From a virus (taxonomy: Duplodnaviria; Heunggongvirae; Uroviricota; Caudoviricetes): a DNA stretch of 64,000 nucleotides. The notes below the pieces were generated by a model. That model did not search any database, had not been told where the DNA came from, and saw only the letters and a list, made by a program, of their open reading frames with translations. Where the stretch lies: the IMG/VR virus record IMGVR_UViG_3300031993_000049; one strand, given 5' to 3'. Position numbers and translations under genes: made by a program. Below are positions 12,546 through 60,307 of this stretch, one piece after another. The first letter of the stretch is position 1; every line of letters starts with the position of its first letter.

Positions 12546-12566
12546 CAGTTTGGCACGGTATTTGTA
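12546..12566 (+). promoter_or_regulatory. conserved 21-mer CAGTTTGGCACGGTATTTGTA (sigma-54-like TGGCACG-N4-TTGTA)
   Basis: One of five intergenic copies. Spacing matches -24 GG / -12 (GC to GT). Confidence 0.45.
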
Positions 12567-12679
12567 AGATAAAAATTGAGGCGCATAGTGAACAACTCAC
12601 TCTCGCAGTTTTGAAATTAAAAAAAAATGTGTTACCTTTGCGGTACGAAATTGAAAAAACAGATTAAAATTTTAGTAAT

Positions 12680-12931
12680 ATGAAAAAAGTAAAAACAGAG
12701 TATGTTGCAATTGTTAATGGCGATAAATACGTTATTTTTTCGCCAGATATTTCTAGAATTAATCCACATACCGTTTTGGGTTGCGTATTGTATGAGGGTA
12801 GTGCTCATAGTTCTTTGTATTACAACGAGGGTAACTATTCAAAAGAAGAACTAGAAAGTGCTGGTTATGGTATTGTCGATGAAATAGTTAAAGTTGACAC
12901 ATATACAGAAGAAACAACAATTTATAAATAA
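12680..12931 (+). CDS. hypothetical protein
   Basis: First ORF downstream of the conserved leader. Confidence 0.65.
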   Translation: MKKVKTEYVAIVNGDKYVIFSPDISRINPHTVLGCVLYEGSAHSSLYYNEGNYSKEELESAGYGIVDEIVKVDTYTEETTIYK

Positions 12932-12959
12932 TCTTTAATATAGAATTAAATTTATTGTT

Positions 12960-13775
12960 ATGGAAGAGAAATTTTTAACTAGAGAAATTGTACAACAAAA
13001 CGGCTGGGACGAACTAGAGGTTATAACAGCCGACATGCTTGATGGGTATACGGAAATTGGATATGCTGCTTTCGGTAATTGTTACAATATTACTTCAATT
13101 ACTATTCCAAATAGCGTAACATATATTGGCAATTCGGCTTTCGCTGGTTGCGACAGTCTTACATCTGTTATTGTTCCAAACAGCGTCATAACCATTGGTG
13201 CGAGTGCTTTTAGGGGTTGTTCAAATCTTAAATCAATTAATATTCCAGATAGTACAAAAGAAATTGGAGAATATGCTTTCCATAGATGCAAAAGTCTTAC
13301 TTCAATTACCATTCCAGATAGTGTAACACGTATGGAAAGCGGCGCTTTCGATGGTTGCTCCAGCCTTACATCTGTCACTATTCCCAACAGTGTAACATAC
13401 ATGGGATATTGGGTTTTCAACCATTGTTCATTCAAAACCCCAAAAAGATATGATGAACAAGGTCGTTTAATTGCCTATAAGGGATTTAATGCCGACATGT
13501 CATGTCGTGGTTTTCAATATGAGGAGGGTGAAACTTATGAAATGGATGGTGAGATTAAATTATGCGAACGAGGCTTTCATGCGTGCACAAACCCACTAGA
13601 TTGTTTGAATTTCTATGGTGGTGAAATATGCAAAGACGTTGTATACCACGAGGTTTACCTTGAAGATGTATCTGATGAGAGTGGTGATGATTCAAAGGTA
13701 GTTGCAAGGAAAATCACCATTGGGCACGAAATAACGCTATCCGAAATGGCAGATATTGCAAGTGGTAAAAAATAA
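12960..13775 (+). CDS. BspA-type leucine-rich-repeat protein with C-terminal Cys-containing domain
   Basis: Five-plus tandem ~22-aa repeats: ITSITIPNSVTYIGNSAFAGCDSLTSV / IVPNSVITIGASAFRGCSNLKSI etc. Confidence 0.8.
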   Translation: MEEKFLTREIVQQNGWDELEVITADMLDGYTEIGYAAFGNCYNITSITIPNSVTYIGNSAFAGCDSLTSVIVPNSVITIGASAFRGCSNLKSINIPDSTKEIGEYAFHRCKSLTSITIPDSVTRMESGAFDGCSSLTSVTIPNSVTYMGYWVFNHCSFKTPKRYDEQGRLIAYKGFNADMSCRGFQYEEGETYEMDGEIKLCERGFHACTNPLDCLNFYGGEICKDVVYHEVYLEDVSDESGDDSKVVARKITIGHEITLSEMADIASGKK

Positions 13776-13802
13776 AATTGTGTAATTACGATGTGCCCTT
13801 AT

Positions 13803-13823
13803 CAGTTTGGCACGGTATTTGTA
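13803..13823 (+). promoter_or_regulatory. conserved 21-mer CAGTTTGGCACGGTATTTGTA (copy 2)
   Basis: Exact copy. Followed by GTAC-loop-GTAC hairpin. Confidence 0.45.
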
Positions 13824-13897
13824 CTGAAAAAAGTACGACCGTATTTATTAGGTCTGTAAAGTAAAAGTAGAATATTAACTAAAACAAATAAAATAAA

Positions 13898-14317
13898 ATG
13901 AAAAGAATTAAGTATTGGAAAGTCGTTAAAGACGGAGTTGACATTGAAACCGCTAACAATATGCTTAAAGCACAGGCGGTTGAAGGACATTTGTATGACA
14001 GATTGGCCGTGCGCCTGAAAGGTGATGGTAACATCTACGAATACGGTACTGACCTTATGAGTCGCAACTTTACCGCTAAGGTTGTACTTCACGGAACCTG
14101 GGAGATACTGATCCCTGATGACGGAGAAGAGGAACGTCTGGATAAACTGCGTAAGATTGTTAAGGATGAAAATTTCCTTACGGTAAATCACGAGGCTATT
14201 GACAATATGAATATCGATGCTATCTGGAAAAAGGTCGTCGATCGTATTGACAGTAATAAAGCCAAGTACGTGGTTATCAAGGCTATTGTCGAAAACAAAT
14301 TGTATAAAGACAAGTAA
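13898..14317 (+). CDS. hypothetical protein
   Basis: + strand ORF. The 200-aa antisense ORF 13802-14404 is rejected. Confidence 0.7.
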   Translation: MKRIKYWKVVKDGVDIETANNMLKAQAVEGHLYDRLAVRLKGDGNIYEYGTDLMSRNFTAKVVLHGTWEILIPDDGEEERLDKLRKIVKDENFLTVNHEAIDNMNIDAIWKKVVDRIDSNKAKYVVIKAIVENKLYKDK

Positions 14318-14318
14318 T

Positions 14319-14558
14319 ATGTGGTTAAAAATTGATGATAACAAATTGATCAATCTTGATTTAGTCAAAGCGATTGATAAGGGATTTAACGATATGATTA
14401 TCATTCGTTATGAATTAGATCAAGATGTTATTAATTTCAGAAACGAATGGACTAGAGACGCTGCTTTCGATGACATTCAGAAGTATATTAAAAGTGGTCC
14501 GTTGATGACGGACATTAAAACAGGTAATGATGAAAAAGAAGATTTATCTAGCATCTAG
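14319..14558 (+). CDS. hypothetical protein
   Basis: Track ORF 14217 trimmed to the in-frame ATG just after the upstream stop. Confidence 0.55.
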   Translation: MWLKIDDNKLINLDLVKAIDKGFNDMIIIRYELDQDVINFRNEWTRDAAFDDIQKYIKSGPLMTDIKTGNDEKEDLSSI

Positions 14559-14961
14559 TATGAACAGCGATCGTAGGGATGAATACTACTTCGCTAAAAA
14601 GGCTCTTGAAGCCGCTGGCTTTGAAGTTTACTATCCAGTGGAACATTGCATTGACCACGCCTGGGATTATCCCAATCAAGAGTGGGGTCTGATGGTGTTC
14701 CAAAACGATATGTCCGCAATACTTGCTTGTGACTATATGGTTCTTCTTTCTTATGGAAGAAACTCCACTGCGGGTGCCAATTGGGAGGCTGGTTATGCTT
14801 TCGGTATTGGTAAAAAAGTGATCGTTGTTGAAATGACCGATGAGGTTATGTCTCTTATGGTCGCTAACGGTAGATATGCTACAGTTAAGGGCTTGGAAGG
14901 TCTTAAAAAGTATGATTGGGAGAATATGCCCATGAGTAGAACAAATACAGAACAAAAGTAA
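14527..14961 (+). CDS. nucleoside 2-deoxyribosyltransferase-like protein
   Basis: KKIYLASSM ... TAGANWEAGYAFGIGKKVIVV: Rossmann-like NDT/Rcl family signature. Confidence 0.65.
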   Translation: MMKKKIYLASSMNSDRRDEYYFAKKALEAAGFEVYYPVEHCIDHAWDYPNQEWGLMVFQNDMSAILACDYMVLLSYGRNSTAGANWEAGYAFGIGKKVIVVEMTDEVMSLMVANGRYATVKGLEGLKKYDWENMPMSRTNTEQK

Positions 14962-14974
14962 AATTTATGGAATT

Positions 14975-15400
14975 ATGAAACTAGAAAAAGATTATTTAGA
15001 CTATCTCGTGATCGAACTGGAAGAAACGATTGGTACTAGTCCTCATAGTCGAGAGGCCATTAAGGATATCCTGCAGAAGGCTGCTGATTTTGGTAAAGAC
15101 AAAAAAGAGCCTGTAAACGAGGACTTGGAGAAAGAAGTGAAAGAATGTTGGGATTATGTTTTTGCTCTTGGTTGGGATGAGAACTCTTTAATGACAATGA
15201 ATCACAAAGAGTTTGTAGCGTTTGCTCGTCACTTTGCTGAGTGGCAAAAAGAACAGATGATGAAAAATAGTACAGATGCATATATTCACAGAAACAGGTA
15301 CACCAAGACAAATGTGCTGCACCTTGACGTGACTTGTGATGCTGTCCAAGTTTTCAAAGACAATGATAAACTGAAAGTTATTTTCGTTAAAGAAGATTAA
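14975..15400 (+). CDS. hypothetical protein
   Basis: Co-oriented ORF. Confidence 0.7.
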   Translation: MKLEKDYLDYLVIELEETIGTSPHSREAIKDILQKAADFGKDKKEPVNEDLEKEVKECWDYVFALGWDENSLMTMNHKEFVAFARHFAEWQKEQMMKNSTDAYIHRNRYTKTNVLHLDVTCDAVQVFKDNDKLKVIFVKED

Positions 15401-15507
15401 TTATGGATCCCGTAATTGAAGTATTATCTTGTATCGTTATCTCGTGCGTTATTGTACTGATAATGGTTATATGGGATTATTTTACTCACGATAAAAGACA
15501 AAGATAA

Positions 15508-15690
15508 ATGGAAAAATTAGCAACAATAAACGAGGCTCTTGCTTTTGGAAAAAAGGAAATGCTTGAAAAAGCAATTAAGTGGTTATCGGAAAACGCTGGT
15601 TATTATACCTGGTATAACGAATTTGAAGGTGAATCGGGTATGATGGAAGAGTTCATTCCTGAGTTCCGTAAAGCAATGGAGAAAGAATGA
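15508..15690 (+). CDS. hypothetical protein
   Basis: Co-oriented ORF. Confidence 0.55.
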   Translation: MEKLATINEALAFGKKEMLEKAIKWLSENAGYYTWYNEFEGESGMMEEFIPEFRKAMEKE

Positions 15691-16166
15691 TAGTAGAGTA
15701 CGGCACATATATGAGTGAGCGGGAGAAAAAGAAATATTTGAAAAGGATTAAACGTCCTGTTCATTTATATCATATTTCTCTTAAAAATCACGATGGTGAG
15801 GTTTTCAAACCACGAGTTCCTGAGGATTTCGGAAACAACGAAGACTATACCATACCGCGAGTGTGCTTTTCTTCCACGATTTCTGGCGCGTACAGGGCGA
15901 TCACATTCGAAGATATACATGGGGAAGATTGCTATGTTCACGTGCCTGAGAACGCCGTTTCTTTGTTTAAGAACGGCAATGTATATAAACCAGGCGAGGA
16001 ACTTGTATGGGATACTTATTTCACCGACGAATATTGGGTGAAAAGACCAGTCAAAATGAAATGCATTGGTAAGGCTAGGTTCTATTATAAAGAATCACTT
16101 GGTTTATTTTGTTCTGGACCCTGGAGACCACCAGTGAAATTCAAATGGTTAGAAAAATATAATTAA
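15687..16166 (+). CDS. hypothetical protein
   Basis: Co-oriented ORF. Confidence 0.7.
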   Translation: MIVEYGTYMSEREKKKYLKRIKRPVHLYHISLKNHDGEVFKPRVPEDFGNNEDYTIPRVCFSSTISGAYRAITFEDIHGEDCYVHVPENAVSLFKNGNVYKPGEELVWDTYFTDEYWVKRPVKMKCIGKARFYYKESLGLFCSGPWRPPVKFKWLEKYN

Positions 16167-16315
16167 ATGGAAAAGAAACACGAGAAATTAAAGAAAAGAT
16201 GTTTTAATTGCAAATTTAGTGAAATGGGCTGTGAGGATCGGTTCAGAGTTAGAAATACATTTGGCTACACTGTTTGCAGTAAATGGAGAAATAATCAAAG
16301 TTTAATTGAAAAGAA

Positions 16316-16816
16316 ATGAGCGCAACAAATTCATTACATTACAATTTATGTCTGGAAGGTGCCAAGTGGCTTAAGAGAAAAAATAACCATGAGTATTATG
16401 AAACACCGTGGAAGTATATCGCGGTGGAGATCGTCGTATATGGTTGTGAGAACCCAGACATATGGGCTTTCAACGGCTGGAGTACTATAGTTGTTGAGGT
16501 TAAGACTTCTCATGCTGACTTTCTAAATGACAAGAAGAAGTGGTTTAGACAAGTTGGTAATGAATGTGGAGATCCAGGTAACTATAGGTACTATTTAACA
16601 CCTAAGGGCCTGTTAAAGCCAGAGGAACTACCAGAAGGCTTTGGATTGCTTGAGTGGGACGGTAAGAATATTGAACGTGTCATAAAGGCAACCAAGCGAA
16701 CAGTTACCAATCACGCTGACGGTATTATTATGGCAAGCATACTTAGACGCGAGCATTTCCCAGAAAAAATATATAATTATCGTGGGGAACCAACAACTAT
16801 ACATCCCCAAGAGTAA
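16316..16816 (+). CDS. hypothetical protein, possible PD-(D/E)xK nuclease
   Basis: ENPDIWAF ... TIVVEVKTSHADF resembles a D...(D/E)xK core. Weak. Confidence 0.6.
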   Translation: MSATNSLHYNLCLEGAKWLKRKNNHEYYETPWKYIAVEIVVYGCENPDIWAFNGWSTIVVEVKTSHADFLNDKKKWFRQVGNECGDPGNYRYYLTPKGLLKPEELPEGFGLLEWDGKNIERVIKATKRTVTNHADGIIMASILRREHFPEKIYNYRGEPTTIHPQE

Positions 16817-16829
16817 ATTATTTTAGCGT

Positions 16830-17012
16830 ATGAGATATGTAGAATATGAGGAAATGGAAAAGTTTCTGTTAGAAAAAGTAGATGACATTGATAAAAGAAT
16901 GGAAGAATGTACAGAAGATGACCTAACTTACAGATCACATTTATATGGTGTGAAAATAGGTTATCTGAATGCACTTGGTTATTTAATTGCAAGACAAAAA
17001 ATAAGAATTTAA
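16830..17012 (+). CDS. hypothetical protein
   Basis: Co-oriented ORF. Confidence 0.55.
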   Translation: MRYVEYEEMEKFLLEKVDDIDKRMEECTEDDLTYRSHLYGVKIGYLNALGYLIARQKIRI

Positions 17013-17016
17013 AGTT

Positions 17017-17286
17017 ATGTTTGAAAGACTTGGTAAAAAGGTTGCGTACATCGTTGAGAACTATATGGAGTTCATCTTTGCCCTTGCTGCACTAGCAATA
17101 ATCTTTGCTGTGATTGGGCACTATGGTACGTGTGGTTTTAACTGGAAATGGTTCCTGTTCTTTGAACTTCCGTTGTATCTGTTCTTAGCCTGGGCTATAT
17201 ATGCTTCATGTCAGTTGTATGTAGAAGCCAAAAAGATACAGGAAGCAATGACAAAGAAAGAGAAAAAAGAGGAAGAAAATAAATAA
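17017..17286 (+). CDS. small membrane protein
   Basis: Two hydrophobic segments. Confidence 0.6.
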   Translation: MFERLGKKVAYIVENYMEFIFALAALAIIFAVIGHYGTCGFNWKWFLFFELPLYLFLAWAIYASCQLYVEAKKIQEAMTKKEKKEEENK

Positions 17287-17292
17287 AAAGAT

Positions 17293-17661
17293 ATGGAAAA
17301 AGAAATAATCAAAACGATCAAATTAAAACCAATTAAATGTATCCGTCAATCAAAAAACAATCCATATATGCGTGGATTGGTAATGAAAAGAGGATTAACA
17401 ACAAGGGAAGCCTGTCATATTTACAGAGAAATATTCTTGTTTAATCTTGATCTATCGCTAGATGATTTCGAAGATAGAGAAGAAAAGAACTATTTCTATA
17501 ATGATATTACTGAGAAGATGAATGATTATATCAAAGGAGACGTTGCATGGAATGATTTGTGTGACGCAACTTACTGTTATGATGAAGACGATGATAGCGG
17601 TCCTTCTATCGCTTCTCATTTAAAATTAGTAGAGTATCTACAAAAAAGAGAGGTTATTTAA
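17293..17661 (+). CDS. hypothetical protein
   Basis: Co-oriented ORF. Confidence 0.65.
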   Translation: MEKEIIKTIKLKPIKCIRQSKNNPYMRGLVMKRGLTTREACHIYREIFLFNLDLSLDDFEDREEKNYFYNDITEKMNDYIKGDVAWNDLCDATYCYDEDDDSGPSIASHLKLVEYLQKREVI

Positions 17662-17826
17662 GTATGATAATGTTTAAGGATTACCCGAAGGATTCGAGAT
17701 ATTCGAGTAGCAAGCGGTGGTTAAAAGTAAAAAAGAGAATTAAGAAAATTTTCCATACGAAATTACGTAGGGGAGAATGTGATAAACCATATTCACAAGG
17801 AGAAGTAATATTATAATTGATCAAAA

Positions 17827-18045
17827 ATGAGTAAGAAAAGATTAACGTACGAAGAAGCATCCCAAATTGAATGGGACAATGTTGAACCAATTCCGTGTGG
17901 TAATAGAGTAATCGTCGGTCAAAGTAAAGACGGTAAGTATTACTACGAGGATGACACCAGAACTGCTGATCATCGAATCCTGGACGCGGAGACAGGAGAG
18001 GAACTGTATAGTTATTATGAAGATTTTTATAACGGAAGAAGATGA
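17827..18045 (+). CDS. hypothetical protein
   Basis: Co-oriented ORF. Confidence 0.6.
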   Translation: MSKKRLTYEEASQIEWDNVEPIPCGNRVIVGQSKDGKYYYEDDTRTADHRILDAETGEELYSYYEDFYNGRR

Positions 18046-18278
18046 GTAGAAAAGACGAAATAATTGCTAAAGCGAAGGATAAACTTTCGTATTCTTCTAT
18101 CCAGCAGAGTGGTTTTATCCAAGGTGCTGAATGGGCTGATCAATCAATGCTTGAAAAAGTAATCAAGTGGGCCAAAAAGAATGCAAGAAAATATGCTTGG
18201 CACGATGATGCCAATGATACTTGCGGTTTTTCAGTTAACATATTTATTAAAGATTTAAAAAAAGCAATGGAGGAATAA
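18042..18278 (+). CDS. hypothetical protein
   Basis: 4-nt overlap. Confidence 0.6.
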   Translation: MSRKDEIIAKAKDKLSYSSIQQSGFIQGAEWADQSMLEKVIKWAKKNARKYAWHDDANDTCGFSVNIFIKDLKKAMEE

Positions 18279-18281
18279 ACT

Positions 18282-18467: not shown

Positions 18468-18471
18468 AATT

Positions 18472-18840: not shown

Positions 18841-18855
18841 AAAGAAAATACAATT

Positions 18856-26308: not shown

Positions 26309-26340
26309 TGCGTGCTAAGGGCCACTTTGGCACGCTTTTT
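26309..26340 (+). terminator. possible terminator hairpin (GCGTGC...GCACGC) plus T5. Loop contains TTTGGCACG.
   Basis: 6-bp GC stem followed by T-run. Weaker than the others. Confidence 0.35.
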
Positions 26341-26371
26341 GTTTGACTTTTAATAAAAAATTTGTATAATT

Positions 26372-26821
26372 ATGATACATGAAAAAATCAATGGGCTGAT
26401 CATGGAATCAATGAAAGCCCGCAACGATATACGTACGGAATCACTCCGTGCAATCAAGACCGCTTTCCTTAACTGGAAAACGGAAAAAGAAAACGTTGGC
26501 AAGGAACCTGACGAGGCTTCAGAGTTGCAGATGCTTAGGAAACTCGTTAAACAGCGCCAGGAGTCAATTGAAATGTACAATGCTGCTGGCAGAACCGATT
26601 TGGCTGAAGCAGAGGCCGCACAGATTAACGTTATCAAAGAATTTCTTCCTGCTGAAGCAACAGAGGAAGACGTTCTTAAGGCTTTCAACGAGGTTCTTAC
26701 TGATCTGGACATTGAGCCAGTAAAGAAGAATATGGGTGCCTTTGTAAAGAACATCAAGACTATCTTGCCTAACGCAGACGGTAAGTTGGTAGCAAGTGTT
26801 GTACAAAAACAATTGCATTAA
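26372..26821 (+). CDS. YqeY / GatB C-terminal-domain-like protein
   Basis: Length and motifs (RTESLRAIKTAF, LVKQRQESIEMYNAAGRTDLAEAEAAQINVIKEFLP, KNMGAFVK) match the YqeY family end to end. Confidence 0.85.
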   Translation: MIHEKINGLIMESMKARNDIRTESLRAIKTAFLNWKTEKENVGKEPDEASELQMLRKLVKQRQESIEMYNAAGRTDLAEAEAAQINVIKEFLPAEATEEDVLKAFNEVLTDLDIEPVKKNMGAFVKNIKTILPNADGKLVASVVQKQLH

Positions 26822-40867: not shown

Positions 40868-41077
40868 ATGGAACTATTAGAAAATAACTATGGTAAGGTA
40901 CGGTGTCGCACATGTGACTCCGTACTAAAACCTGGTAAAGAGGATATACACTCAAACTATGATAATGAATATTATGTAATTTGTCCAGTTTGTGGTCAAG
41001 ATATTTGGTTTGATGGAAAGCCAAGTACTAATCCAGTTCTTAAACATATAATTCATGGTGGATTACCACATAGATAA
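40868..41077 (+). CDS. small zinc-ribbon protein (CRTCD...CPVCG)
   Basis: Trimmed to ATG after upstream stop. Confidence 0.55.
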   Translation: MELLENNYGKVRCRTCDSVLKPGKEDIHSNYDNEYYVICPVCGQDIWFDGKPSTNPVLKHIIHGGLPHR

Positions 41078-41096
41078 GTTTGGCACAGTTTTTGTA
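41078..41096 (+). promoter_or_regulatory. variant of the conserved element: GTTTGGCACAGTTTTTGTA (TGGCAC-N5-TTGTA)
   Basis: Keeps TGGCAC and TTGTA with the same spacing. Followed by TATATTTG box. Confidence 0.35.
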
Positions 41097-41128
41097 TATT
41101 TGTTGTAGTAACTTAAAAATTTAAAATA

Positions 41129-41353
41129 ATGAAACATTTGACAGAAAAAGAACTTTTTCCAGGTAAAGCGGTTAGATACTATCCTTTCATTGATGGCGAC
41201 GGTAATCCAGATAGCGAACCTAAACTTGGTATTGTAGCCAGTGGTCCTTACTATATATGTGGTAGTGTATGCTACAAACTCGCTGAGGTAAGTGCTGTAG
41301 TAGACATTGAAAATCTATTTGATGTATGGGACGAAGACAAAGTTAGTGAATAA
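41129..41353 (+). CDS. hypothetical protein
   Basis: Co-oriented ORF. Confidence 0.6.
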   Translation: MKHLTEKELFPGKAVRYYPFIDGDGNPDSEPKLGIVASGPYYICGSVCYKLAEVSAVVDIENLFDVWDEDKVSE

Positions 41354-41563: not shown

Positions 41564-41935
41564 ATGACAAAGACAGCAGTAATGCAATCGGATTTTAACA
41601 TCACTGGAGAAATAGGTGGTGTTAAATATAAATATATAAAGATTCCATGGGTTGAACATCTAGAGATATATAAGTATTATCATGATAGTCAATCTGCGGA
41701 AAGAATTAATGAACGTGGTGGTTTTGGTGTAAGAGAAGCCGCTTATATGGGTTATAATCCTCTAGTTATTTGGGTAATTTATGATTACAGCGAAAAAGAT
41801 AGTGATTGGACAAAAGTAGCACTCCTTTTTGATAAAGACTCTGATTTTAGATCATACCGTTACAGGGTTTTAACTGAAGAAGAATACAAAAGTCTTGATA
41901 TATTTGAAAAAATTAAAGATACGTATGATAATTGA
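41564..41935 (+). CDS. hypothetical protein
   Basis: Co-oriented ORF. Confidence 0.65.
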   Translation: MTKTAVMQSDFNITGEIGGVKYKYIKIPWVEHLEIYKYYHDSQSAERINERGGFGVREAAYMGYNPLVIWVIYDYSEKDSDWTKVALLFDKDSDFRSYRYRVLTEEEYKSLDIFEKIKDTYDN

Positions 41936-42353
41936 AAATGAAAATTATGTTAGTTTTGAAACAGCAAAACTATTGAAAGATAATGGATTTGATTGGTCTT
42001 GCCGAGCAAGATACGGAAGTGCTGGTTCTTTCTGTTATGAAAAATATCCGATTGAAGCAAGTGGATGTGAAATGCACAATTGTATACTTTGTCCAACTCT
42101 TCAAATGGCTAAGAAATGGTTAGAAGAAGTTCACAATCTTTTCATTACTATTGAAATAAAAGGTGATCCACGAAAAGAGGATTTCATTTATTATAAATGG
42201 TCTGTTGCAAAATTTTGTTGTGTTAAAATTGAAAGAATTGATAACGGTTTAAACACACCAGAAGATTATTGGCTTGCACCTGAGGAAGAGGATGAAAAAC
42301 CTGAATATGCGTGTGAAGCAGCAATTAAATATTGTCTTGAAAATTTGATTTGA
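41925..42353 (+). CDS. Family-B paralog (YVSFETAKLLKDNGFD ... PTLQMAKKWL ... ACEAAIKYCLENLI)
   Basis: Shares N-terminus with 2328. Identical C-terminal 14 aa with 42350. Confidence 0.7.
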   Translation: MIIENENYVSFETAKLLKDNGFDWSCRARYGSAGSFCYEKYPIEASGCEMHNCILCPTLQMAKKWLEEVHNLFITIEIKGDPRKEDFIYYKWSVAKFCCVKIERIDNGLNTPEDYWLAPEEEDEKPEYACEAAIKYCLENLI

Positions 42354-42775
42354 TTATGATAGAAGAAGCATACGTTAGTTTTGAAGTGGCAAAACTTCTG
42401 AAAGAGAAGGGTTTTGATGTTGATACTCCAACAAGATATGCTATTGAAAAGGTAACAGAATCTTGGTATGATGATTATCGGGAAAGAGTTGTTAAATTCG
42501 ATTGGGATAGCGGTTATTTTTTAGGCATAAATGATATAAAACACGATATTAGTGGAGATACTATATCTGCTCCTACCCAACAGATGGCAATGCAATGGTT
42601 GAGAAAAATGGGTTGGTTTATTCATATTGATGTCATTCGAGAGGTGTCCTGCTGGACAGCAGATATTCAAGATATAAAGAATGATGTTGCCATTTATGCG
42701 GTTGAAAAAGAATTTCCCAACTATGAACAAGCATGTGAAGCAGCAATTAAATATTGCCTTGAAAATTTGATCTAA
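42350..42775 (+). CDS. Family-B paralog (YVSFEVAKLLKEKGFD ... ACEAAIKYCLENLI)
   Basis: Tandem with 41925. Confidence 0.7.
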   Translation: MIMIEEAYVSFEVAKLLKEKGFDVDTPTRYAIEKVTESWYDDYRERVVKFDWDSGYFLGINDIKHDISGDTISAPTQQMAMQWLRKMGWFIHIDVIREVSCWTADIQDIKNDVAIYAVEKEFPNYEQACEAAIKYCLENLI

Positions 42776-52931: not shown

Positions 52932-53324
52932 ATGGAACAGTTTGTTTGTACAACAATAGAACAGAGTAAGGCATTGCTTGACGCAGGCCTGGACATTGAA
53001 TCTGCAGATATGTATTATCGTTACGATTATAACGAACATACCTGTGAAAACAGTGTACCAAAAATACTTGAAGTATCAGTATGGGATGATCCTAATTGTA
53101 AAGATATACCAGCCTGGAGTGTTGGTAAATTGATCAATCTTATGCCTGATACAATGTATGGGCCATATCCGCCCGATCATTCAACGGACCTTATGATAAA
53201 TAATAAGGTAGTTAATTACTTTGACTGGACTGGAATGCAACATGGTCCCGATTTTACTGGCGGCAGTTTACGAGATAACTGTGTAGAAACAATAAAATGG
53301 CTATTAAAAAACGAAATCATATGA
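52932..53324 (+). CDS. Family-B-prime paralog (TIEQSKALLDAGLD)
   Basis: N-terminus similar to 2687. Confidence 0.65.
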   Translation: MEQFVCTTIEQSKALLDAGLDIESADMYYRYDYNEHTCENSVPKILEVSVWDDPNCKDIPAWSVGKLINLMPDTMYGPYPPDHSTDLMINNKVVNYFDWTGMQHGPDFTGGSLRDNCVETIKWLLKNEII

Positions 53325-53611
53325 CAAAGACATTTAGACAATTAGAACGAGGTGATAAGATTTTAGTTAAAAACATAACAAAACATGTACCTTGCAATGT
53401 TACAATAGACGACCATCATTACATAACGGAAGTTGTTAGTGAAGATAAAACAATGACTATTGACACATTCTCTCATTATGATAATGGTCTTGGAGGTAAG
53501 TTGGTAGAGTTTTATGCATATCCTTATTTAGGTGTAACTCTCAGATTTGAAATGGCTGTAGACGACTTAGATAAAACAGAAACAGAAAAATATAAAATAT
53601 TAGACATATGA
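53297..53611 (+). CDS. hypothetical protein
   Basis: Co-oriented ORF. True start may be the internal ATG at 53321. Confidence 0.5.
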   Translation: MAIKKRNHMTKTFRQLERGDKILVKNITKHVPCNVTIDDHHYITEVVSEDKTMTIDTFSHYDNGLGGKLVEFYAYPYLGVTLRFEMAVDDLDKTETEKYKILDI

Positions 53612-54006
53612 CAAATCAAGATAAAGAACTATTATTGAAAGACCTTTGTGGAAGGTTGTATTATGGCGTTAAATTTCACTATTTCTCAGAATTTGCTGAT
53701 GGTGAAGACCCAGAATTTGATAATACTATCGTAATGATAGATATGGCTGATGAGCAAATCCTTGACGAAGACCATGAAGATTATATTCCAATCAGACAGA
53801 TAGTGCCGTATCTCCGTCCATTATCTAGTATGACTGATGAAGAAGATAAAGAATTTGCTCTTCTTCAAACTGACTTTTATGTTGATGGGTTTCTTTATCC
53901 AATTGCAGCAGTAAATATGATTAATTGGCTTAATAAACATCATTTTGACTACAATGGATTAATTGAAAAAGGCTTAGCATTGGAGGCACCTAAAGATATG
54001 TATTAA
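53608..54006 (+). CDS. Family-A paralog 1 of tandem array
   Basis: MTNQDKELLLKDLCGRLYYGV ... VPYLRPLSSMTDEE ... HHFDYNGLIEKGLALEAPKDMY. Confidence 0.8.
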   Translation: MTNQDKELLLKDLCGRLYYGVKFHYFSEFADGEDPEFDNTIVMIDMADEQILDEDHEDYIPIRQIVPYLRPLSSMTDEEDKEFALLQTDFYVDGFLYPIAAVNMINWLNKHHFDYNGLIEKGLALEAPKDMY

Positions 54007-54008
54007 TT

Positions 54009-54413: not shown

Positions 54414-54415
54414 TT

Positions 54416-54850
54416 ATGACACAAGAAGAAAAAGAATTATTAGCAAAAGATATTTTTAGTCGTGCAATGTGTGGATTAAAGGTACAATATCATGGAGAAA
54501 TATATACTTTGGGATATAACCTTTATCTGGAAGAAAGTTCAACAGCGTTTGAAAGTTATCCAATGAAATGTTTTCTAAGTAAGATTGAGGAAATTAAACC
54601 CTATCTTCGCCCAATGTCAAGTATGACTGAGGAAGAACGTAATGATTTTGAAGATGAATCTCATGGCTGGTTTTATGTTAATGATGATGGTGAAATATAT
54701 CCTATTGGTCAATTTACTGATAGTGGTGAATTTGAAGATGGAATATTAGGTGGTATAGAATATTTAAATAAAAACCATTTTGATTACCGTGGTTTAATTC
54801 ATAGAGAACTTGCTCTTGAAGCACCTGAAGATATGTATAAAACAAAATAA
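54416..54850 (+). CDS. Family-A paralog 3
   Basis: MTQEEKELLAKDIFSR ... KPYLRPMSSMTEEE ... NHFDYRGLIHRELALEAPEDMYK. Confidence 0.8.
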   Translation: MTQEEKELLAKDIFSRAMCGLKVQYHGEIYTLGYNLYLEESSTAFESYPMKCFLSKIEEIKPYLRPMSSMTEEERNDFEDESHGWFYVNDDGEIYPIGQFTDSGEFEDGILGGIEYLNKNHFDYRGLIHRELALEAPEDMYKTK

Positions 54851-54852
54851 CT

Positions 54853-55302
54853 ATGACACAAGAAGATAAAGAACTATTATTGACAGACATTTGTGCAAGA
54901 CTACCTTATGGTGTTAAAGTAGAAAATACAAGTTTTTCAGAATCACAAATACATACACTGTTCGGTAGAGTTTCTGATGATGAATTTCTGATGTTAGAAA
55001 CATATAAAAGTGTTGGTGGTGAAGATTATAGAAGAGTTACCGATGATATACATTATACAGGTTATTTAGAAAACATTAAACCTTATCTCCGTCCTATGTC
55101 AAGTATGACTGAAAAGGAATGTTATGAATTGCATTTCATTAGAAGCAATTTTACGGATAATTGGAAGTACATCAAGACTCCGATTCCGTTGAGTATCGCT
55201 AACTATAATCAAGTCGATTGGCTCAACAGTCATCACTTTGATTATCGAGGTTTAATTGAAAAAGGGCTTGCACTTGAAGCACCTGCAGATATGTATAAAT
55301 AA
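54853..55302 (+). CDS. Family-A paralog 4
   Basis: MTQEDKELLLTDICARLPYGV ... KPYLRPMSSMTEKE ... HHFDYRGLIEKGLALEAPADMYK. Confidence 0.8.
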   Translation: MTQEDKELLLTDICARLPYGVKVENTSFSESQIHTLFGRVSDDEFLMLETYKSVGGEDYRRVTDDIHYTGYLENIKPYLRPMSSMTEKECYELHFIRSNFTDNWKYIKTPIPLSIANYNQVDWLNSHHFDYRGLIEKGLALEAPADMYK

Positions 55303-55313
55303 CTTTTATTGAT

Positions 55314-55514
55314 ATGATAAAGACATGTTACTATGCTATTATAGATAAATGGTATGATACGTATATTGGCAATGACAACAAGAAACACCGTAAATACTAT
55401 ACTAATATAATACATTATATGGAAGGTGGATATCCAATGAAATACATAGAAAATATTAATAAACTACCTAGACATCAATATAGTTATATTTGGAGTTTTT
55501 GTCCAATTAAGTAA
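55314..55514 (+). CDS. hypothetical protein interrupting the array
   Basis: Co-oriented ORF. Confidence 0.5.
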   Translation: MIKTCYYAIIDKWYDTYIGNDNKKHRKYYTNIIHYMEGGYPMKYIENINKLPRHQYSYIWSFCPIK

Positions 55515-55527
55515 ATAATAGATAGAT

Positions 55528-55887
55528 ATGACACAGGAAGATAAAGAATTATTATTGAAAGATCTTTGTGCAAGGTTACCTTATGGCGTAATGTTATATG
55601 TTGAAGGTATAAAGAAAAATATTAAGTTATTTGCAGTTGAAGATACTGGAATAAACGGTTTTCAATTTCAGTTTGTTAAACCATATCTCCGTTCAATGTC
55701 TTCGATGACAGAAGATGAAATAGAAGAATATAATAATATAACTCTTATTCATACTCCTTGGGGCATTATGACAGACAGAATAATCGAATTAATCAATTTT
55801 CTCAACTCTCGCCACTTTGACTACAGAGGACTCATAGATAAAGGTATTGCACTTGAAGCACCTAAAGATATGTATAAATTTGATTAA
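55528..55887 (+). CDS. Family-A paralog 5
   Basis: MTQEDKELLLKDLCARLPYGV ... KPYLRSMSSMTEDE ... RHFDYRGLIDKGIALEAPKDMYKFD. Confidence 0.8.
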   Translation: MTQEDKELLLKDLCARLPYGVMLYVEGIKKNIKLFAVEDTGINGFQFQFVKPYLRSMSSMTEDEIEEYNNITLIHTPWGIMTDRIIELINFLNSRHFDYRGLIDKGIALEAPKDMYKFD

Positions 55888-55889
55888 TT

Positions 55890-56051
55890 ATGAAAAAATA
55901 TCACTCAAAAGGTACATGTTCTCAATGTCTTTTTGGTCCATATTATAAAAATGGTAAGAATTGGTGTACTGAGCATAATAGAGAAATTAAAAATCCAAAT
56001 ATAGAACATTGTAATCAATTTTGGAGAGGTGATTTTGCAAAAAGAAAATAA
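55890..56051 (+). CDS. small Cys-containing protein
   Basis: 53-aa ATG ORF (CSQC...CTEH...HC). Confidence 0.4.
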   Translation: MKKYHSKGTCSQCLFGPYYKNGKNWCTEHNREIKNPNIEHCNQFWRGDFAKRK

Positions 56052-56061
56052 TTTAAAAATT

Positions 56062-56217
56062 ATGACACAAGAAGAAATTAAACAATATCTTAAAGACAAT
56101 TTGAAATTGGGATATTTTAAATATAGATCGTGCGGTCAAAATTACATAGGTTTTAAACTTACGTTAGGCGAAGAAATAATCAGTGAAATTAGACCAAGTA
56201 TAAAATCCTTTTTTTAA
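56062..56217 (+). CDS. short ORF with the Family-A MTQEE N-terminal start (possible truncated family member)
   Basis: MTQEEIKQYLKDNLKLGYFKY. Same atgacacaagaagaa start sequence as the array genes. Confidence 0.4.
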   Translation: MTQEEIKQYLKDNLKLGYFKYRSCGQNYIGFKLTLGEEIISEIRPSIKSFF

Positions 56218-56401
56218 TTATGATCACAGTAATAAATAATTACATACAGTGTGACGAATGTGGTAGGGATTTGGCATATGACAATAGTGATACCTATGAA
56301 TCCTGGAACTGGAACCATAGATATAGAGTAATATATTTGGATTGCCCTAAATGTGGTAATTCTATTGCAATAAGACGATTAGAAGAAAAAAATGTATAAT
56401 T

Positions 56402-56728
56402 ATGTACAGAAAGTATGGAATAGCAATTTTACCTTGGAGAGGGGACCCAAAAACATTAATCGAATGGAGAAGTGAAGATGATGCATTCGTTAATGTAAGT
56501 GATGAACATTTTGGAGGTATACCAGAAGACAAGGTTGATTTTGATATTGATCACGTCGTAGATTTTCTATTAGGTGAAGGAAGATACCAAATGGGATTAT
56601 ACTTACCTGATGAAATATTAAAATTAATGAAACAAAGATGCCCAGAATCGGAAACTTGGTTGATGGGACAAATTGATTATATGATTAGGCAAAACAGAAG
56701 ATATTATGACACAAGAAGAATTATTTGA
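56402..56728 (+). CDS. hypothetical protein
   Basis: Co-oriented ORF. Confidence 0.6.
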   Translation: MYRKYGIAILPWRGDPKTLIEWRSEDDAFVNVSDEHFGGIPEDKVDFDIDHVVDFLLGEGRYQMGLYLPDEILKLMKQRCPESETWLMGQIDYMIRQNRRYYDTRRII

Positions 56729-56912
56729 AATAGTAGCAAAAGGATATGAAGCAGCATTAAGTTCATGTTTTGACGGTGGAGCATTATATGCAAGAGGATT
56801 TGTCGACGGAATGGCATTTCAAAAAGATGGAACCATTCCAATGAGCAAACTAGATAGAATACTTAAAGAAATAGAAGATAAAAAGAAAAATGAAAAGACC
56901 GAAGAAAATTGA
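56706..56912 (+). CDS. hypothetical protein (MTQEE start)
   Basis: Co-oriented ORF. Confidence 0.55.
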   Translation: MTQEELFEIVAKGYEAALSSCFDGGALYARGFVDGMAFQKDGTIPMSKLDRILKEIEDKKKNEKTEEN

Positions 56913-57144
56913 AATTGGAGACACTGTTACGTGGATTAAAGAAAAAAGACACGTTGTATCATTCCTGGAAGATAATAAAGAGCCATTAGTTGTTTTTAAA
57001 ATTTGGTACCCGTCTAGAGGGTGGAAATATTATTGTGAATATCTTAAGTTGTTCCTTTATAATATTTGCCTGCAGGAAGAATACACTAAAGCAAAAAGAA
57101 ATAAACTTTACAAATTAAATGGATTAGTATATGGAGAATGGTAA
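56890..57144 (+). CDS. hypothetical protein
   Basis: Co-oriented ORF. Confidence 0.55.
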   Translation: MKRPKKIEIGDTVTWIKEKRHVVSFLEDNKEPLVVFKIWYPSRGWKYYCEYLKLFLYNICLQEEYTKAKRNKLYKLNGLVYGEW

Positions 57145-57463
57145 TGTAAACATAATGATCCCAGTACCAACAAAAGAATTTACTGAGGAATTGAAAGAAA
57201 AAAAAGGCGTTGATATTAATGACGTATTAGCCAGACTTGTGTATGACTTTCTGGATAACGTTAAAAAAGACAACCCAACTGAAATAATACAAATTAGTGT
57301 TACTGTAAAACAACTTGCCGAACTGGACGTTTATAATATAAATGCTCCAGCAATGATAACATCCGCATTTAAAAAAGAATTAGAGGCTTTATTAGATAGT
57401 TGTGAAAAAACTGATAAAAATATACATCAACCAAACGGTCAAGTAAGGTTTGACAAATTATAA
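57131..57463 (+). CDS. hypothetical protein
   Basis: Co-oriented ORF. Confidence 0.6.
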   Translation: MENGNVNIMIPVPTKEFTEELKEKKGVDINDVLARLVYDFLDNVKKDNPTEIIQISVTVKQLAELDVYNINAPAMITSAFKKELEALLDSCEKTDKNIHQPNGQVRFDKL

Positions 57464-57505
57464 AATGATCAAAATTTTTATAAATCATTTAAAACATTAT
57501 AATAT

Positions 57506-57796
57506 ATGAATACATTTGAATTAATTATTATTACATTAGCACTTGTTTATGTTGTTTCTTCACTGTATTTTGCCATATCTGGTAGAGTACTTGCAAGAAA
57601 AAAAGAAAAGAAAGATGACGAAAGGTATGAAAATCAACATAACATTGAAGACCAAATTACTGTCCTTACTCAAAGACTGGGTGCAGTCCTAGCAGAGAAT
57701 GAAAGACTAAATGGTGTAGTAAGAAGTTGGATGGCACAGGCAAATGATTACAAAATTAGACTTGATGCTGCATTAAAAGAAAAAGAAGGTAATTAA
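57506..57796 (+). CDS. hypothetical protein with N-terminal TM helix
   Basis: Co-oriented ORF. Confidence 0.6.
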   Translation: MNTFELIIITLALVYVVSSLYFAISGRVLARKKEKKDDERYENQHNIEDQITVLTQRLGAVLAENERLNGVVRSWMAQANDYKIRLDAALKEKEGN

Positions 57797-57799
57797 ACA

Positions 57800-58096
57800 A
57801 TGATCAAAGAAAGTGACTTCATAATTGAAGAATTAAAAAAGTGGGATAAGAAATTTGATGGCATTCATATTCGTTATGGATATGATAAACCTTCAGCGTA
57901 TCACGTTATAGAAATATCACCCGAATCAATAAGACGTGGTGATATTGACTATATGAATACTGAATATAAGTTCTGGGAGAGGTTTTCTAAAATCTATCCT
58001 AAATCAGACTTGTTAATATCTAACCCTAATTATAATACGGAATGTATTAGTGAAAATTTATTATACGATAATTATTATGGTAGAGTTTACAATTAA
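57800..58096 (+). CDS. hypothetical protein
   Basis: Co-oriented ORF. Confidence 0.6.
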   Translation: MIKESDFIIEELKKWDKKFDGIHIRYGYDKPSAYHVIEISPESIRRGDIDYMNTEYKFWERFSKIYPKSDLLISNPNYNTECISENLLYDNYYGRVYN

Positions 58097-58238
58097 ATAC
58101 GGGGAACAATGCCCGAACATTAAAGAAGTGAAAGTTACTTCAAGAGAAATATGCAATAAATGTAAACACAAAAAATATTCAACCAAATGTTTTGTTGTGT
58201 GTAATGAAGACAAGGATAGTAAATTTTTTTATTTATAA
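58077..58238 (+). CDS. small Cys-rich protein
   Basis: Trimmed to internal ATG. Confidence 0.45.
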   Translation: MVEFTIKYGEQCPNIKEVKVTSREICNKCKHKKYSTKCFVVCNEDKDSKFFYL

Positions 58239-58374
58239 TTATGATAGGTGTTTTATTTAAAGGTAATTGGCATCAGGGTTTCAATTCATTAATCGAGGCT
58301 GAAAAATATGTCCATGATAAGATTGAAAATCAAGGATATAAAGAAGAAGATTGGAGTTATATGTTTTATTAATT

Positions 58375-58617
58375 ATGGGAAAAGCAACAAATCAAGAAGA
58401 TTATATCAAGGGATATAAAAAAGGTGTAGAGGATGGTAAAAAAGACGCAATGATCAAATTGCAGGAAATGAATTTCAACGAAGGATTGCCTTCTAATGAG
58501 ACTCTGTATAAGATATTCGAACTATTGGAAAAAGTAAAGAAACAGGATGCTGATTCTCATAGTTTGTATATGAACGCGTGGGAACATTATGCCAATTATA
58601 TTACACAAAATTGGTAA
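58375..58617 (+). CDS. hypothetical protein
   Basis: Trimmed to ATG. Confidence 0.55.
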   Translation: MGKATNQEDYIKGYKKGVEDGKKDAMIKLQEMNFNEGLPSNETLYKIFELLEKVKKQDADSHSLYMNAWEHYANYITQNW

Positions 58618-58645
58618 AAAATACTAGTAAAATGAATACTTGGAT

Positions 58646-58666
58646 CAGTTTGGCACGGTATTTGTA
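58646..58666 (+). promoter_or_regulatory. conserved 21-mer CAGTTTGGCACGGTATTTGTA (copy 4) heading a ~120-bp leader paralogous to 12546-12679
   Basis: Exact 21-mer. Downstream leader shares CACTCTCGCA, CTTTGC, AAATTGAAAAA and AAAATT blocks with the 12.5-kb copy. Confidence 0.45.
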
Positions 58667-58768
58667 GGATAAAAGATGTGGGGTTGAATATACATTTCAC
58701 TCTCGCATCTTTTGATTTAAAAAATATGTATTATCTTTGCAACAGAAAATTGAAAAAGGAATAAAATT

Positions 58769-59605
58769 ATGAAATTTGGAAATGTAGTATTGTACAGTAA
58801 AGGTTGGTATCAACGTCGTGGTGATTCTGATAAGATATGGATGGATCTCATCCATTGTATCTCTGCAGACGGTTGGACATTGTTTAGTAAAAAGGATGTT
58901 GTTGCCTGGTGTCTCCATCGTCTAGACGAAATGAAAGAAGATGAGTTGCTTCGTAATAACAAGAATATGCTAAGTCTTTCACGTTTGTACGAGGAAGTAA
59001 ACCGTTGTAAGAGTTTCTGGAACTACTGGCACCACGACGAGGAACTTTCTACTGATGATGCAATTATCGCTGTATTCCTTAGTACTGTTTCTTGCCTTGA
59101 GAAAACCTGTTTCAGTGAAGGTGTTCGTCCTAGCGAACTGGTTCTTCCTTTGACATACCAAGATGCGTATTACGACGATGGAAGATATAACACGGATCAT
59201 AAACCGTCATTTAAGTTTGCACAAATGCATTGTGACGTTATGAAACGCATTGAAGAGTTTTTCCCTGACTTCAAAGAACAGGACCCGAAGAGTATCTATC
59301 TTATTGAAGATTTCGAGACTGTTGAGGGTAATATTCGCGGTAAAAAAATTGAGGACGTACTTGTTCTCAACGGTAGCGACAATCTTAACGATTGCATCGA
59401 GGTAACAGTCGGCGGTGATGATATCATACACAACAGTTTTGTTTTCATCAATAGAAAAAAGGCATATCTTGACAAAGGTATCTACGACCACTGTATTGAT
59501 ATTGATAACAATACTCAATATACTGTTAGAATACAGAAAAAAGAATCCATATGGGAGGATGATGAACCAGAATATATCATTCGTTCAATTAAAAAAGTAA
59601 AATAA
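58769..59605 (+). CDS. hypothetical protein (278 aa)
   Basis: First ORF after the conserved leader. Confidence 0.75.
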   Translation: MKFGNVVLYSKGWYQRRGDSDKIWMDLIHCISADGWTLFSKKDVVAWCLHRLDEMKEDELLRNNKNMLSLSRLYEEVNRCKSFWNYWHHDEELSTDDAIIAVFLSTVSCLEKTCFSEGVRPSELVLPLTYQDAYYDDGRYNTDHKPSFKFAQMHCDVMKRIEEFFPDFKEQDPKSIYLIEDFETVEGNIRGKKIEDVLVLNGSDNLNDCIEVTVGGDDIIHNSFVFINRKKAYLDKGIYDHCIDIDNNTQYTVRIQKKESIWEDDEPEYIIRSIKKVK

Positions 59606-59607
59606 TT

Positions 59608-59913
59608 ATGGCAAAGAAAAGAAAAAATAATTTAAACGAAGAGGTAGAAGAATATCTCAAGAAACATTGGACCAGAGTTCCTGACGAGCATTTGGTAGAC
59701 GAACCTGTATATTTCGTCCTGGAAGACGATCTTAAGGCACTTGCAAAACACTTTGCTAACTGGGGTCGTAAACATGTCGAAATGGAAGGTGAGATTCTGG
59801 AAAACTTTGATGGCCCTGTTCTCGATTTCGATGAAAACGAAATGGCAGAGAAACTTGAAGTCTGCGGGTTTAAAACGTTTGATAAAGTAAAAATCACAAT
59901 CGATAAGATATGA
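59608..59913 (+). CDS. hypothetical protein
   Basis: Co-oriented ORF. Confidence 0.65.
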   Translation: MAKKRKNNLNEEVEEYLKKHWTRVPDEHLVDEPVYFVLEDDLKALAKHFANWGRKHVEMEGEILENFDGPVLDFDENEMAEKLEVCGFKTFDKVKITIDKI

Positions 59914-60260
59914 TGGTAGACGAAGAAAGGCAAGAAATTGTAAATAAAAAAGCCGAAGAGGAAAACAACTTTTTTCTTCGTGCAGCCGCTGGATTAATTC
60001 CACAAGAGGAACACTTCAAGGAAGGTTTCATAAAGGGCGTAGAATGGCAAAAAAACGGCATTTGGAGGAAATGTGCCAAAGAGGTACCCACGCATATGGG
60101 CGAAGAAATAATCGTTCTGTGCCGAAACAAGAATAAACCCGATGGTATTTGGCTTTCTGACCTTATCCAATGTTGGGAAGGAAAGTGGGAACCGCGAGTT
60201 AACTATGAGACTCCAGTTTACTGGACATATGTTAACGACATACTCCCCGATGTTGATTAA
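59910..60260 (+). CDS. hypothetical protein
   Basis: 4-nt overlap. Confidence 0.65.
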   Translation: MMVDEERQEIVNKKAEEENNFFLRAAAGLIPQEEHFKEGFIKGVEWQKNGIWRKCAKEVPTHMGEEIIVLCRNKNKPDGIWLSDLIQCWEGKWEPRVNYETPVYWTYVNDILPDVD

Positions 60261-60286
60261 TTTTTGTATATTTAGATTGTCAAGAT

Positions 60287-60307
60287 CAGTTTGGCACGGT
60301 ATTTGTA
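60287..60307 (+). promoter_or_regulatory. conserved 21-mer CAGTTTGGCACGGTATTTGTA (copy 5)
   Basis: Exact copy, 14 nt upstream of the ATG of 60321. Confidence 0.45.

Follow-up and report, generated by a model that had tools for sequence, protein, structure and literature searches.

Which form of RNA polymerase reads a short element that recurs, always in the same direction, in the gaps between the genes of a large uncultured tailed phage? The 21-mer in question, CAGTTTGGCACGGTATTTGTA, was found in a 64,000-nt stretch of DNA (the window) from the IMG/VR record IMGVR_UViG_3300031993_000049 (Caudoviricetes), which corresponds to approximately record positions 59,394-123,393 of the 253,946-bp metagenomic contig ENA ERZ27257203 k141_2048293, and a first-pass annotation had likened its spacing to that of the -24/-12 promoters of sigma-54 (RpoN). 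Judged by sequence comparison, the sites in the window are probably promoters for the host sigma-54 holoenzyme that drive accessory or middle-type phage genes. The element belongs to an already known promoter class, and it is its large-scale use by uncultured jumbo phages of Bacteroidota, with no visible activator, that is the interesting part.

Four exact copies of the 21-mer lie at 12546, 13803, 58646 and 60287, all on the + strand, where dinucleotide shuffles lead to an expectation of 0.00, and a copy with three mismatches, AAGTTTGGCACAGTTTTTGTA, occupies 41076-41096 (+), its TGGCAC beginning at 41081. A search with the core TTTGGCAC-N4-TTTGT returned six exact matches on the + strand of the window and none on the - strand (0.00 expected), the sixth being a site at 26326-26342 (TTTGGCACGCTTTTTGT). 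The four exact copies reported in the first-pass annotation were therefore re-found and all five of its copies are real, while its count was too low by this sixth site and its position for the variant, 41078, was slightly off. Three further exact copies exist within 10 kb 5' of the window (L004:1653, 4054 and 6313; labels of this kind denote the contig and genome stretches that were fetched, L004 being part of the same contig, 5' of the window), giving a total of nine sites in the 79 kb of the contig covered by the motif counts (record positions 49,624-128,998, window included). The genes of the window are nearly all on the + strand and tightly packed, with few gaps, and all six sites fall inside gaps between + strand open reading frames (ORFs). 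They are listed here with the start sites that the sigma-54 reading predicts.

Site 1: 12546..12566, + strand, exact 21-mer (TGGCAC 12551-12556, TTGTA 12562-12566), predicted start 12577-12578; opens promoter cassette 1 and is followed on the + strand by an 83-aa ORF (12680-12931) and then the BspA leucine-rich repeat (LRR) gene (12960-13775).
Site 2: 13803..13823, + strand, exact 21-mer, predicted start 13834-13835; after a 74-nt gap follows a 139-aa + strand ORF (13898-14317) with no Pfam or PHROG match.
Site 3: 26323..26343, + strand, CACTTTGGCACGCTTTTTGTT, predicted start 26354-26355; then a YqeY-like gene (26372-26821).
Site 4: 41076..41096, + strand, the variant AAGTTTGGCACAGTTTTTGTA, predicted start 41107-41108; overlaps the stop codon of ORF 40868-41077 and is followed by a 74-aa + strand ORF (41129-41353).
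Site 5: 58646..58666, + strand, exact 21-mer, predicted start 58677-58678; opens promoter cassette 2 and is followed by a 278-aa unknown gene on the + strand (58769-59605).
Site 6: 60287..60307, + strand, exact 21-mer, predicted start 60318-60319; a 73-aa ORF (60321-60542) follows.

From the end of the motif to the next ATG there are 113, 74, 28, 32, 102 and 13 nt at sites 1 to 6, respectively, so that the earlier description of intergenic copies 15-130 nt upstream of + strand genes was about right. It had also named the BspA LRR gene and the 278-aa unknown among the downstream genes; the former is the second gene after site 1 and the latter does follow site 5.

The resemblance to sigma-54 promoters concerns both halves of the element and the distance between them. 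Specifically, the 21-mer agrees with the consensus YTGGCACGR-N3-TTGCW at 13 of the 14 specified positions, the exception being the C at -12, which is what the first-pass annotation had stated of the core (RpoN consensus apart from GT at -12). All six window sites carry TTTGGCAC, that is TGGCAC with the invariant GG, and five of the six have the consensus G at -20; the spacing TGGCAC-N5-TTG is identical in every copy, so that exactly ten bases separate the GG from the G(C), and the TTG and the following A are present in the window sites, with T as the -12 base in all six. A wider profile drew on all fetched loci, where the relaxed pattern TGGCA[CT]-N4-[TA]TTG[CT]N has 263 unique matches, of which 116 are left when those containing the seed are removed. 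In these 116 sites, positions that the search did not constrain are conserved (A-30 0.63, G-29 0.60, T-28 0.91, T-27 0.95, C-21 0.81, G-20 0.83, T-18 0.86 and A-11 0.74), and the -12 base is C in 0.34 and T in 0.66. Orthologous phage genes are preceded by TTTGCA in L009 (881) and by TTTGTA in L006, L008 and L031. The canonical TTGCA form is used throughout the phage-like contigs L005, L068 and L101 (L005 has nine TTTGC sites and one TTTGTA site), and other contigs use TTGTA or TTGTG. Since orthologous and related sites alternate in this way between TTGCA and TTGTA, GT at -12 is normal in the lineage and not a defect.

The phage sites have TGGCACG at -24, TTG at -15 to -13 and A at -11, in precisely the spacing of canonical sigma-54 promoters such as glnAp2, nifH and pspA. 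Like these they are locked in orientation 5' of genes, and the distance to the start agrees in a related host (12-13 nt, see below). Unlike them, the window sites have T at -12 and sit in a lytic-type phage genome rather than in a cellular regulon. Two other identities were considered and rejected: the Bacteroidota primary-sigma promoter (-33 TTTG and -7 TAnnTTTG, 19-21 nt apart) is not what the 21-mer represents, its TTTG and TATTTG being just 6 nt apart, and no Rfam family matches at the motif.

Mapped transcription starts are available for Bacteroides thetaiotaomicron from differential RNA sequencing (dRNA-seq), in a table that gives the 50 nt 5' of each mapped start (PMC7366714, supplementary file 3). 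Seven starts with a TTGGCA(C/T)-N5-TTGN motif upstream were retrieved from it (PMC7366714).

BT_1000: -12 base A, start 12 nt after that base.
BT_0837 (ATP-dependent protease): -12 base T, start 12 nt after.
BT_1111: -12 base T, start 13 nt after.
BT_0565 (heat shock protein): -12 base C, start 13 nt after.
BT_0779: -12 base C, start 13 nt after.
BT_1530 (OprM): -12 base A, start 13 nt after.
BT_2233: -12 base T, start 7 nt after.

Six of the seven thus start 12-13 nt past the -12 base, and four of these six have A or T at that position. Functional -24/-12 promoters of Bacteroidota thus commonly have GT or GA in place of GC, and matrix predictors trained on Proteobacteria would under-call such sites. 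The B. thetaiotaomicron motif ‘PM2’ was also compared; it precedes up to 35% of antisense starts and is described as a -10/-30 motif, both of which argue against identity with the present element.

Position relative to genes follows a regular pattern as well. In the fetched loci, the distance from the -12 base to the first ATG peaks at 33-38 nt, with a minor class at 13-18 nt into which site 6 of the window falls; as its predicted start lies 2-3 nt 5' of the ATG at 60321, the corresponding mRNA would be nearly leaderless. Sites and genes are co-oriented in 10/10 cases in L078, 10/10 in L005 and 10/11 in L019. In related phage contigs tRNA genes start exactly 16 nt past the motif, and in L028 (IMG/VR 3300028591_000101, 154 kb) and L106, which hold dozens of tRNA genes in arrays together with a tmRNA, sigma-54-type sites stand at this distance from the first tRNA of several blocks.

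The element also exists in bacterial chromosomes. The 20-mer AGTTTGGCACGGTATTTGTA, when scanned against one genome per species (596 Gb, approximately one chance match expected), was found in 43 species genomes, namely 38 of Bacteroidota (including Paludibacteraceae, Prevotella, Bacteroides, Duncaniella, Taibaiella and Bergeyella), four of Planctomycetota and one unclassified. In JGI metagenomes, more than 115 contigs (rumen, termite gut and other samples) contain it, mostly in one copy and with unrelated flanks. Read in the orientation of the motif, the next gene encodes HSP90/HtpG in one metagenome contig and three species of Prevotella, and products of next genes elsewhere in bacteria include Cpn10/GroES, MacB/FtsX permeases, an ABC ATPase, an HlyD adaptor and an OmpR-type response regulator; in one organism (L123/L119) the gene for an NtrC-type bacterial enhancer-binding protein (bEBP) ends just 5' of the motif. 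A matrix-based survey predicted an enrichment of sigma-54 promoters at COG0577 permeases in Bacteroidia and, for both Bacteroidota and Planctomycetota, at chaperone/protease genes (PMC12316311), and the host genes behind the 20-mer (HtpG, GroES, MacB/FtsX) agree with this prediction. The phage sites belong to the same sequence class as that regulon (PMC12316311), the identical 20-mer preceding HtpG, GroES, MacB/FtsX and HlyD genes. They differ from it, a chromosomal and matrix-predicted set, in being promoters on phage DNA that precede small accessory genes, and tRNA arrays in relatives. Consensus, profile, orthologues, host chromosomes and B. thetaiotaomicron starts all support, in silico, the -24/-12 interpretation advanced at first pass.

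Two observations were made around the host copies. In Bacteroidales genomes the motif is followed by conserved sequences that appear to be non-coding and make up at least four families, several of the sequences ending in terminators (L131, L139, L143, L144, L155, L157 and L159-L161; L130, L148 and L150; L124, L127, L129, L154 and L158; L120, L136 and L145); examples are ...ATAGAGATTGTTTGTTAT with a terminator and GAACTCATAATTTTTGGAGG. No Rfam family matched these sequences, which are candidate sigma-54-dependent small RNAs. Moreover, a box TGACAAAATGAC(T/A) lies 10-25 nt 5' of the -24 element at Prevotella htpG (L133:2425, L134:6992, L135:2625, L032) and likewise in the phage contigs L019/L171 and L013; this box may serve host and phage alike as an activator or operator site, and shows no enrichment in the window.

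A different host factor, such as an uncharacterised alternative sigma factor of Bacteroidota or a regulator of a stress regulon, might nevertheless read the motif, with the match to sigma-54 being coincidental. RpoN dependence is here a prediction from sequence, T or A frequently takes the place of C at -12, chaperone genes are no classical sigma-54 targets, a bEBP gene adjoins in just one or two of approximately 160 loci, and a second intergenic motif, TTTTGTATWWTTA, shares the TTTGTAT half. On the other hand, coincidence would have to account for the agreement at 13 of 14 consensus positions with exact -24/-12 spacing, for canonical TTGCA versions at orthologous sites and for starts at the sigma-54 distance, and identity across two phyla fits the highly conserved DNA-binding domain of RpoN. 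The two blocks are 11 bp apart, as opposed to the 16-19 bp of the sigma-70 family, and an ordinary operator is at odds with the strict orientation and the non-palindromic sequence. Such a factor is accordingly regarded as unlikely. As to the second motif itself, TTTTGTATWWTTA occurs on the + strand at 8074, 8098, 12510, 26360, 31425, 38067, 41090 and 60262, with 11 matches in the window at up to one mismatch against 3.6 expected; it is often situated directly 3' of terminator hairpins. Its sequence is similar to the -12 half of the sigma-54-type sites, and it may represent a further class of promoter.

Use of the element extends well beyond this phage. The 21-mer with its CAG prefix has no match in IMG/VR, because the prefix makes the query too strict; without it, the 19-mer has matches in seven viral contigs of IMG/VR (45-361 kb). 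Other phage contigs contain up to 10 sites per 6.6 kb, and in many metagenome contigs 0.4-3 sites per kb precede small unannotated genes. The Prevotella phage Lak-B8 has no site in the 41 kb around its RNA ligase homologue, and therefore the motif is not universal among Prevotella phages. In the limited literature searched, no relevant report on sigma-54 promoters in phage genomes was found, and mass use of -24/-12 promoters by lytic phages appears to be undescribed there.

This abundance in phages could also be taken to mean that the sites are targets of a phage-encoded sigma factor, sigma-appropriation system or regulator, an alternative that had been raised at first pass. Promoter-specificity factors of their own are common in large phages, phage contigs carry the motif at a far higher density than bacterial ones, and 175 kb of the genome lie outside the 79 kb that were scanned. 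However, the identical 20-mer stands 5' of housekeeping stress genes in 43 bacterial species, and promoters of the same form have mapped starts in uninfected B. thetaiotaomicron. Chromosomal copies in two phyla and starts in uninfected cells make a purely phage-specific factor unnecessary and, in our estimation, very unlikely.

If the sites are sigma-54 promoters, the sequence of events could be as follows. The sigma-54 holoenzyme forms stable closed complexes that are opened only with an AAA+ enhancer-binding protein. The holoenzyme of the Bacteroidota host would bind TGGCAC (GG at -25/-24) and TTGT (G-13, T-12), initiate 12-13 nt further on, at approximately 12577, 13834, 26354, 41107, 58677 and 60318, and then transcribe into the + strand accessory genes 3' of each site. 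Because closed complexes cannot open by themselves, these promoters should fire only with an active AAA+ activator, and would form a conditional or delayed (middle-type) class apart from the primary-sigma promoters (TTTG...TAnnTTTG) that adjoin two of the sites. Given that the motif heads chaperone, protease and efflux genes of hosts, the most economical assumption is a phage that makes use of the activator of some host stress regulon, or else encodes one itself in the part of its genome beyond the 79 kb covered. The sequence class, its conservation, its occurrence in hosts and the start geometry of a related host are observed; sigma-54 dependence on the phage, the timing and the activator are inferred. 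In this large uncultured phage, as in many of its relatives from rumen and gut, part of gene expression appears to be coupled to a sigma factor of the host.

Five of the nine contig copies (sites 1 and 5 and the three 5' of the window) lie within a cassette of approximately 125 nt, in the order motif, purine-rich arm, CACTCTCGCA box, primary-sigma promoter, A-rich leader and ATG. The primary-sigma promoter is of the Bacteroidota type (TTTG ... TTACCTTTG or TTATCTTTG) and is located approximately 25 nt past the CACTCTCGCA box; at sites 1 and 5 its matches lie 45-70 nt 3' of the motif, as separate promoters. Sites 2, 3, 4 and 6 run straight into the next gene. Beyond the motif, the two cassettes of the window comprise:

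Cassette 1, remainder: 12567..12679, + strand, CACTCTCGCA at 12598-12607, TTTG at 12610-12613, TACCTTTG at 12633-12640, A-rich leader.
Cassette 2, remainder: 58667..58768, + strand, CACTCTCGCA at 58698-58707 (the 3' arm of the hairpin), TTTG at 58711-58714, TATCTTTG at 58732-58739, A-rich leader.

The purine-rich arm and the CACTCTCGCA box fold into a strong hairpin with a T-run in four of the five contig copies (-17 to -20 kcal/mol, z -4.8 to -6.7), and only weakly in the copy at 12546 (z -1.1). The stretches concerned (window 12567-12615 and 58667-58717; L004 1675-1720, 4076-4120 and 6335-6380) look like terminators, with an A-run on the 5' side and a T-run on the 3' side in addition to G-U pairs. 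RNAalifold recovered no common structure across 12 cassettes from three phages, and in other phages the 3'-arm box CACTCTCGCA occurs without a partner arm. As the pairing is not conserved and the box can do without its partner, the box seems to be associated with the promoter and the hairpin to be specific to the lineage. The conserved box, (T)CACTCTCGCA, was noted at 12598-12640 and 58698-58739 in the window, at L004:1653-1780, 4054-4180 and 6313-6430, and in L019, L171 and L072. In L019/L171 it also occurs with no sigma-54-type motif, alone after separate terminators and 5' of TTTTATTTGCATATAG. By analogy with the MotA box of T4, an activator or a sigma-appropriation factor may bind there. 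A repeated module in which stem-loop and promoter stand together in the gaps between small accessory genes recalls the MotA-box middle promoters and intergenic cassettes of T4, although no MotA or AsiA homologue was found (no search aimed at one was made), and CACTCTCGCA is situated at approximately -40 of the primary-sigma promoter, much as the MotA box replaces the -35 element; unlike T4-type cassettes, that of the present phage bears a sigma-54-type promoter in tandem. Tandem promoters of two sigma classes suggest expression in two regimes.

These cassettes bring up the possibility that the sites bind the sigma-54 holoenzyme mainly as sinks or roadblocks, which would titrate polymerase or insulate transcription units. 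It is well established that closed complexes of this holoenzyme are stable without an activator, the 79 kb covered yielded neither an activator nor an upstream site for one, and at two copies a hairpin with a T-run and a primary-sigma promoter stand between site and gene. A passive role is nonetheless highly improbable in view of the tight spacing to start codons and tRNA 5' ends across hundreds of sites, the strictly co-directional orientation, and the four of six window sites at which no other recognisable promoter precedes the gene. That the copies are merely the conserved, functionless ends of a duplicated or recombining intergenic cassette (cf. the promoter-stem-loop cassettes of T4 type) would suit the five of nine copies found within the repeated cassette, but this is extremely improbable and largely refuted by the unrelated flanks of the motif in more than 150 contigs and genomes, and flank comparison shows that the window copies at 13803, 26326, 41076 and 60287 share the motif alone.

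Several points weigh against promoters for sigma-54 holoenzyme, even if they do not displace them as the preferred interpretation. None of the six window sites has the canonical C at -12; their -12 half, TTTGTAtA, is similar to TTTTGTATWWTTA, and a different factor could therefore read that half; and one of the seven B. thetaiotaomicron starts, that of BT_2233, is just 7 nt past the -12 base. For two of the copies in the window, transcripts would start within the 5' arm of the hairpin, whose T-run could terminate them. A search of the genome for an AAA+ bEBP or a phage sigma factor had been suggested at first pass; in the 79 kb covered (window, L001 and L004) there is no bEBP or RpoN signature (GAFTGA, Walker A, RpoN box). 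None of the seven motif-bearing IMG/VR contigs is among the 65 that encode a bEBP in a scan by exact ELFGHEK or FREDLYY, and no conserved upstream activator site is seen, the flanks past approximately -32 being unrelated.

A bolder proposal, tentative and rather doubtful at present, is that sigma-54 provides the main non-primary promoter class of a whole clade of uncultured jumbo phages of rumen and gut Bacteroidota, serving accessory genes and tRNA arrays, and that these promoters are fired without a conventional DNA-bound activator. The phage could supply an unrecognised activator or a bypass factor, or it could tap a host activator of the proteotoxic-stress response, so that the stress of infection would act as the timer. 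In Escherichia coli, T at -12 weakens the lock on unactivated complexes; more speculatively, the T of the window sites might be part of an activator bypass. A parallel comes from cyanophages, whose genomes carry host-type NtcA or PhoB boxes and thereby co-opt host regulons. In both cases a lytic phage bears a host regulatory sequence and its programme partly follows a host signal; the cyanophage boxes are activator sites on sigma-70 promoters, whereas here it is the whole promoter of another sigma class, with an obligatory ATPase step. Approximately 20 viral contigs (L210-L233; IMG/VR 3300006738_000975, 3300025131_000352 and others) encode a short bEBP-like AAA+ protein that over residues 26-232 shares approximately 41% identity with the bEBP cores of Bacteroidales; these proteins are possible phage-encoded sigma-54 activators, in unrelated and apparently marine viruses.

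In textbook accounts, phage transcription relies on host sigma-70, phage sigma factors or phage polymerases, and sigma-54 is the one bacterial sigma factor with obligatory ATP-dependent activation. If the sigma-54 reading is true, the timing of phage genes would be tied to the sigma-54 stress regulon of Bacteroidota from gut and rumen, which has received little study, TTTGGCAC-N4-TTTGYA would serve as a sequence handle both for transcription units and for the prediction of Bacteroidota hosts of uncultured phages, and an activator or bypass mechanism not yet known would be indicated.

The remaining content of the window gives some idea of the genome in which the sites are embedded. Its G+C content is approximately 35%, and its sole tRNA, tRNA-Arg(CCT) at 12409-12481, is also the only Rfam match in the window (12409-12480); the tRNA is followed by a clean terminator hairpin (GAGAGGATTAATTCCTC and T8), approximately 30 nt 5' of site 1 (12409-12514). 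The BspA LRR gene matches Pfam LRR_5 (3.5e-43), and a gene for polynucleotide kinase was identified by PHROG (3.6e-78). Other accessory genes encode two RNA ligases, RNase H, Thg1, the YqeY-like protein and phosphoesterases, with NAD-salvage genes just downstream. No close relatives were detected when 16 kb were compared by megablast with 50,697 deposited phage records, and the best protein match of an RNA ligase is to a Prevotella Lak megaphage (34% identity). A 353-aa protein (5784-6845) carries a PHROG transposase annotation (phrog_10081, 6.1e-20) and has no Pfam match. Small genes form paralogous families, at 231-632, 53608-54006, 54416-54850, 54853-55302 and 55528-55887, at 8139-8786 with 8798-9442, and at 2328-2684, 2687-3070, 41925-42353, 42356-42775 and 52932-53324. 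Examples are the N-termini MTQE(E/D)KELLLKDLCARLPYGV and the VSxETAKLLKEKGFD family, and such families point to extensive tandem and dispersed gene duplication in the accessory region.

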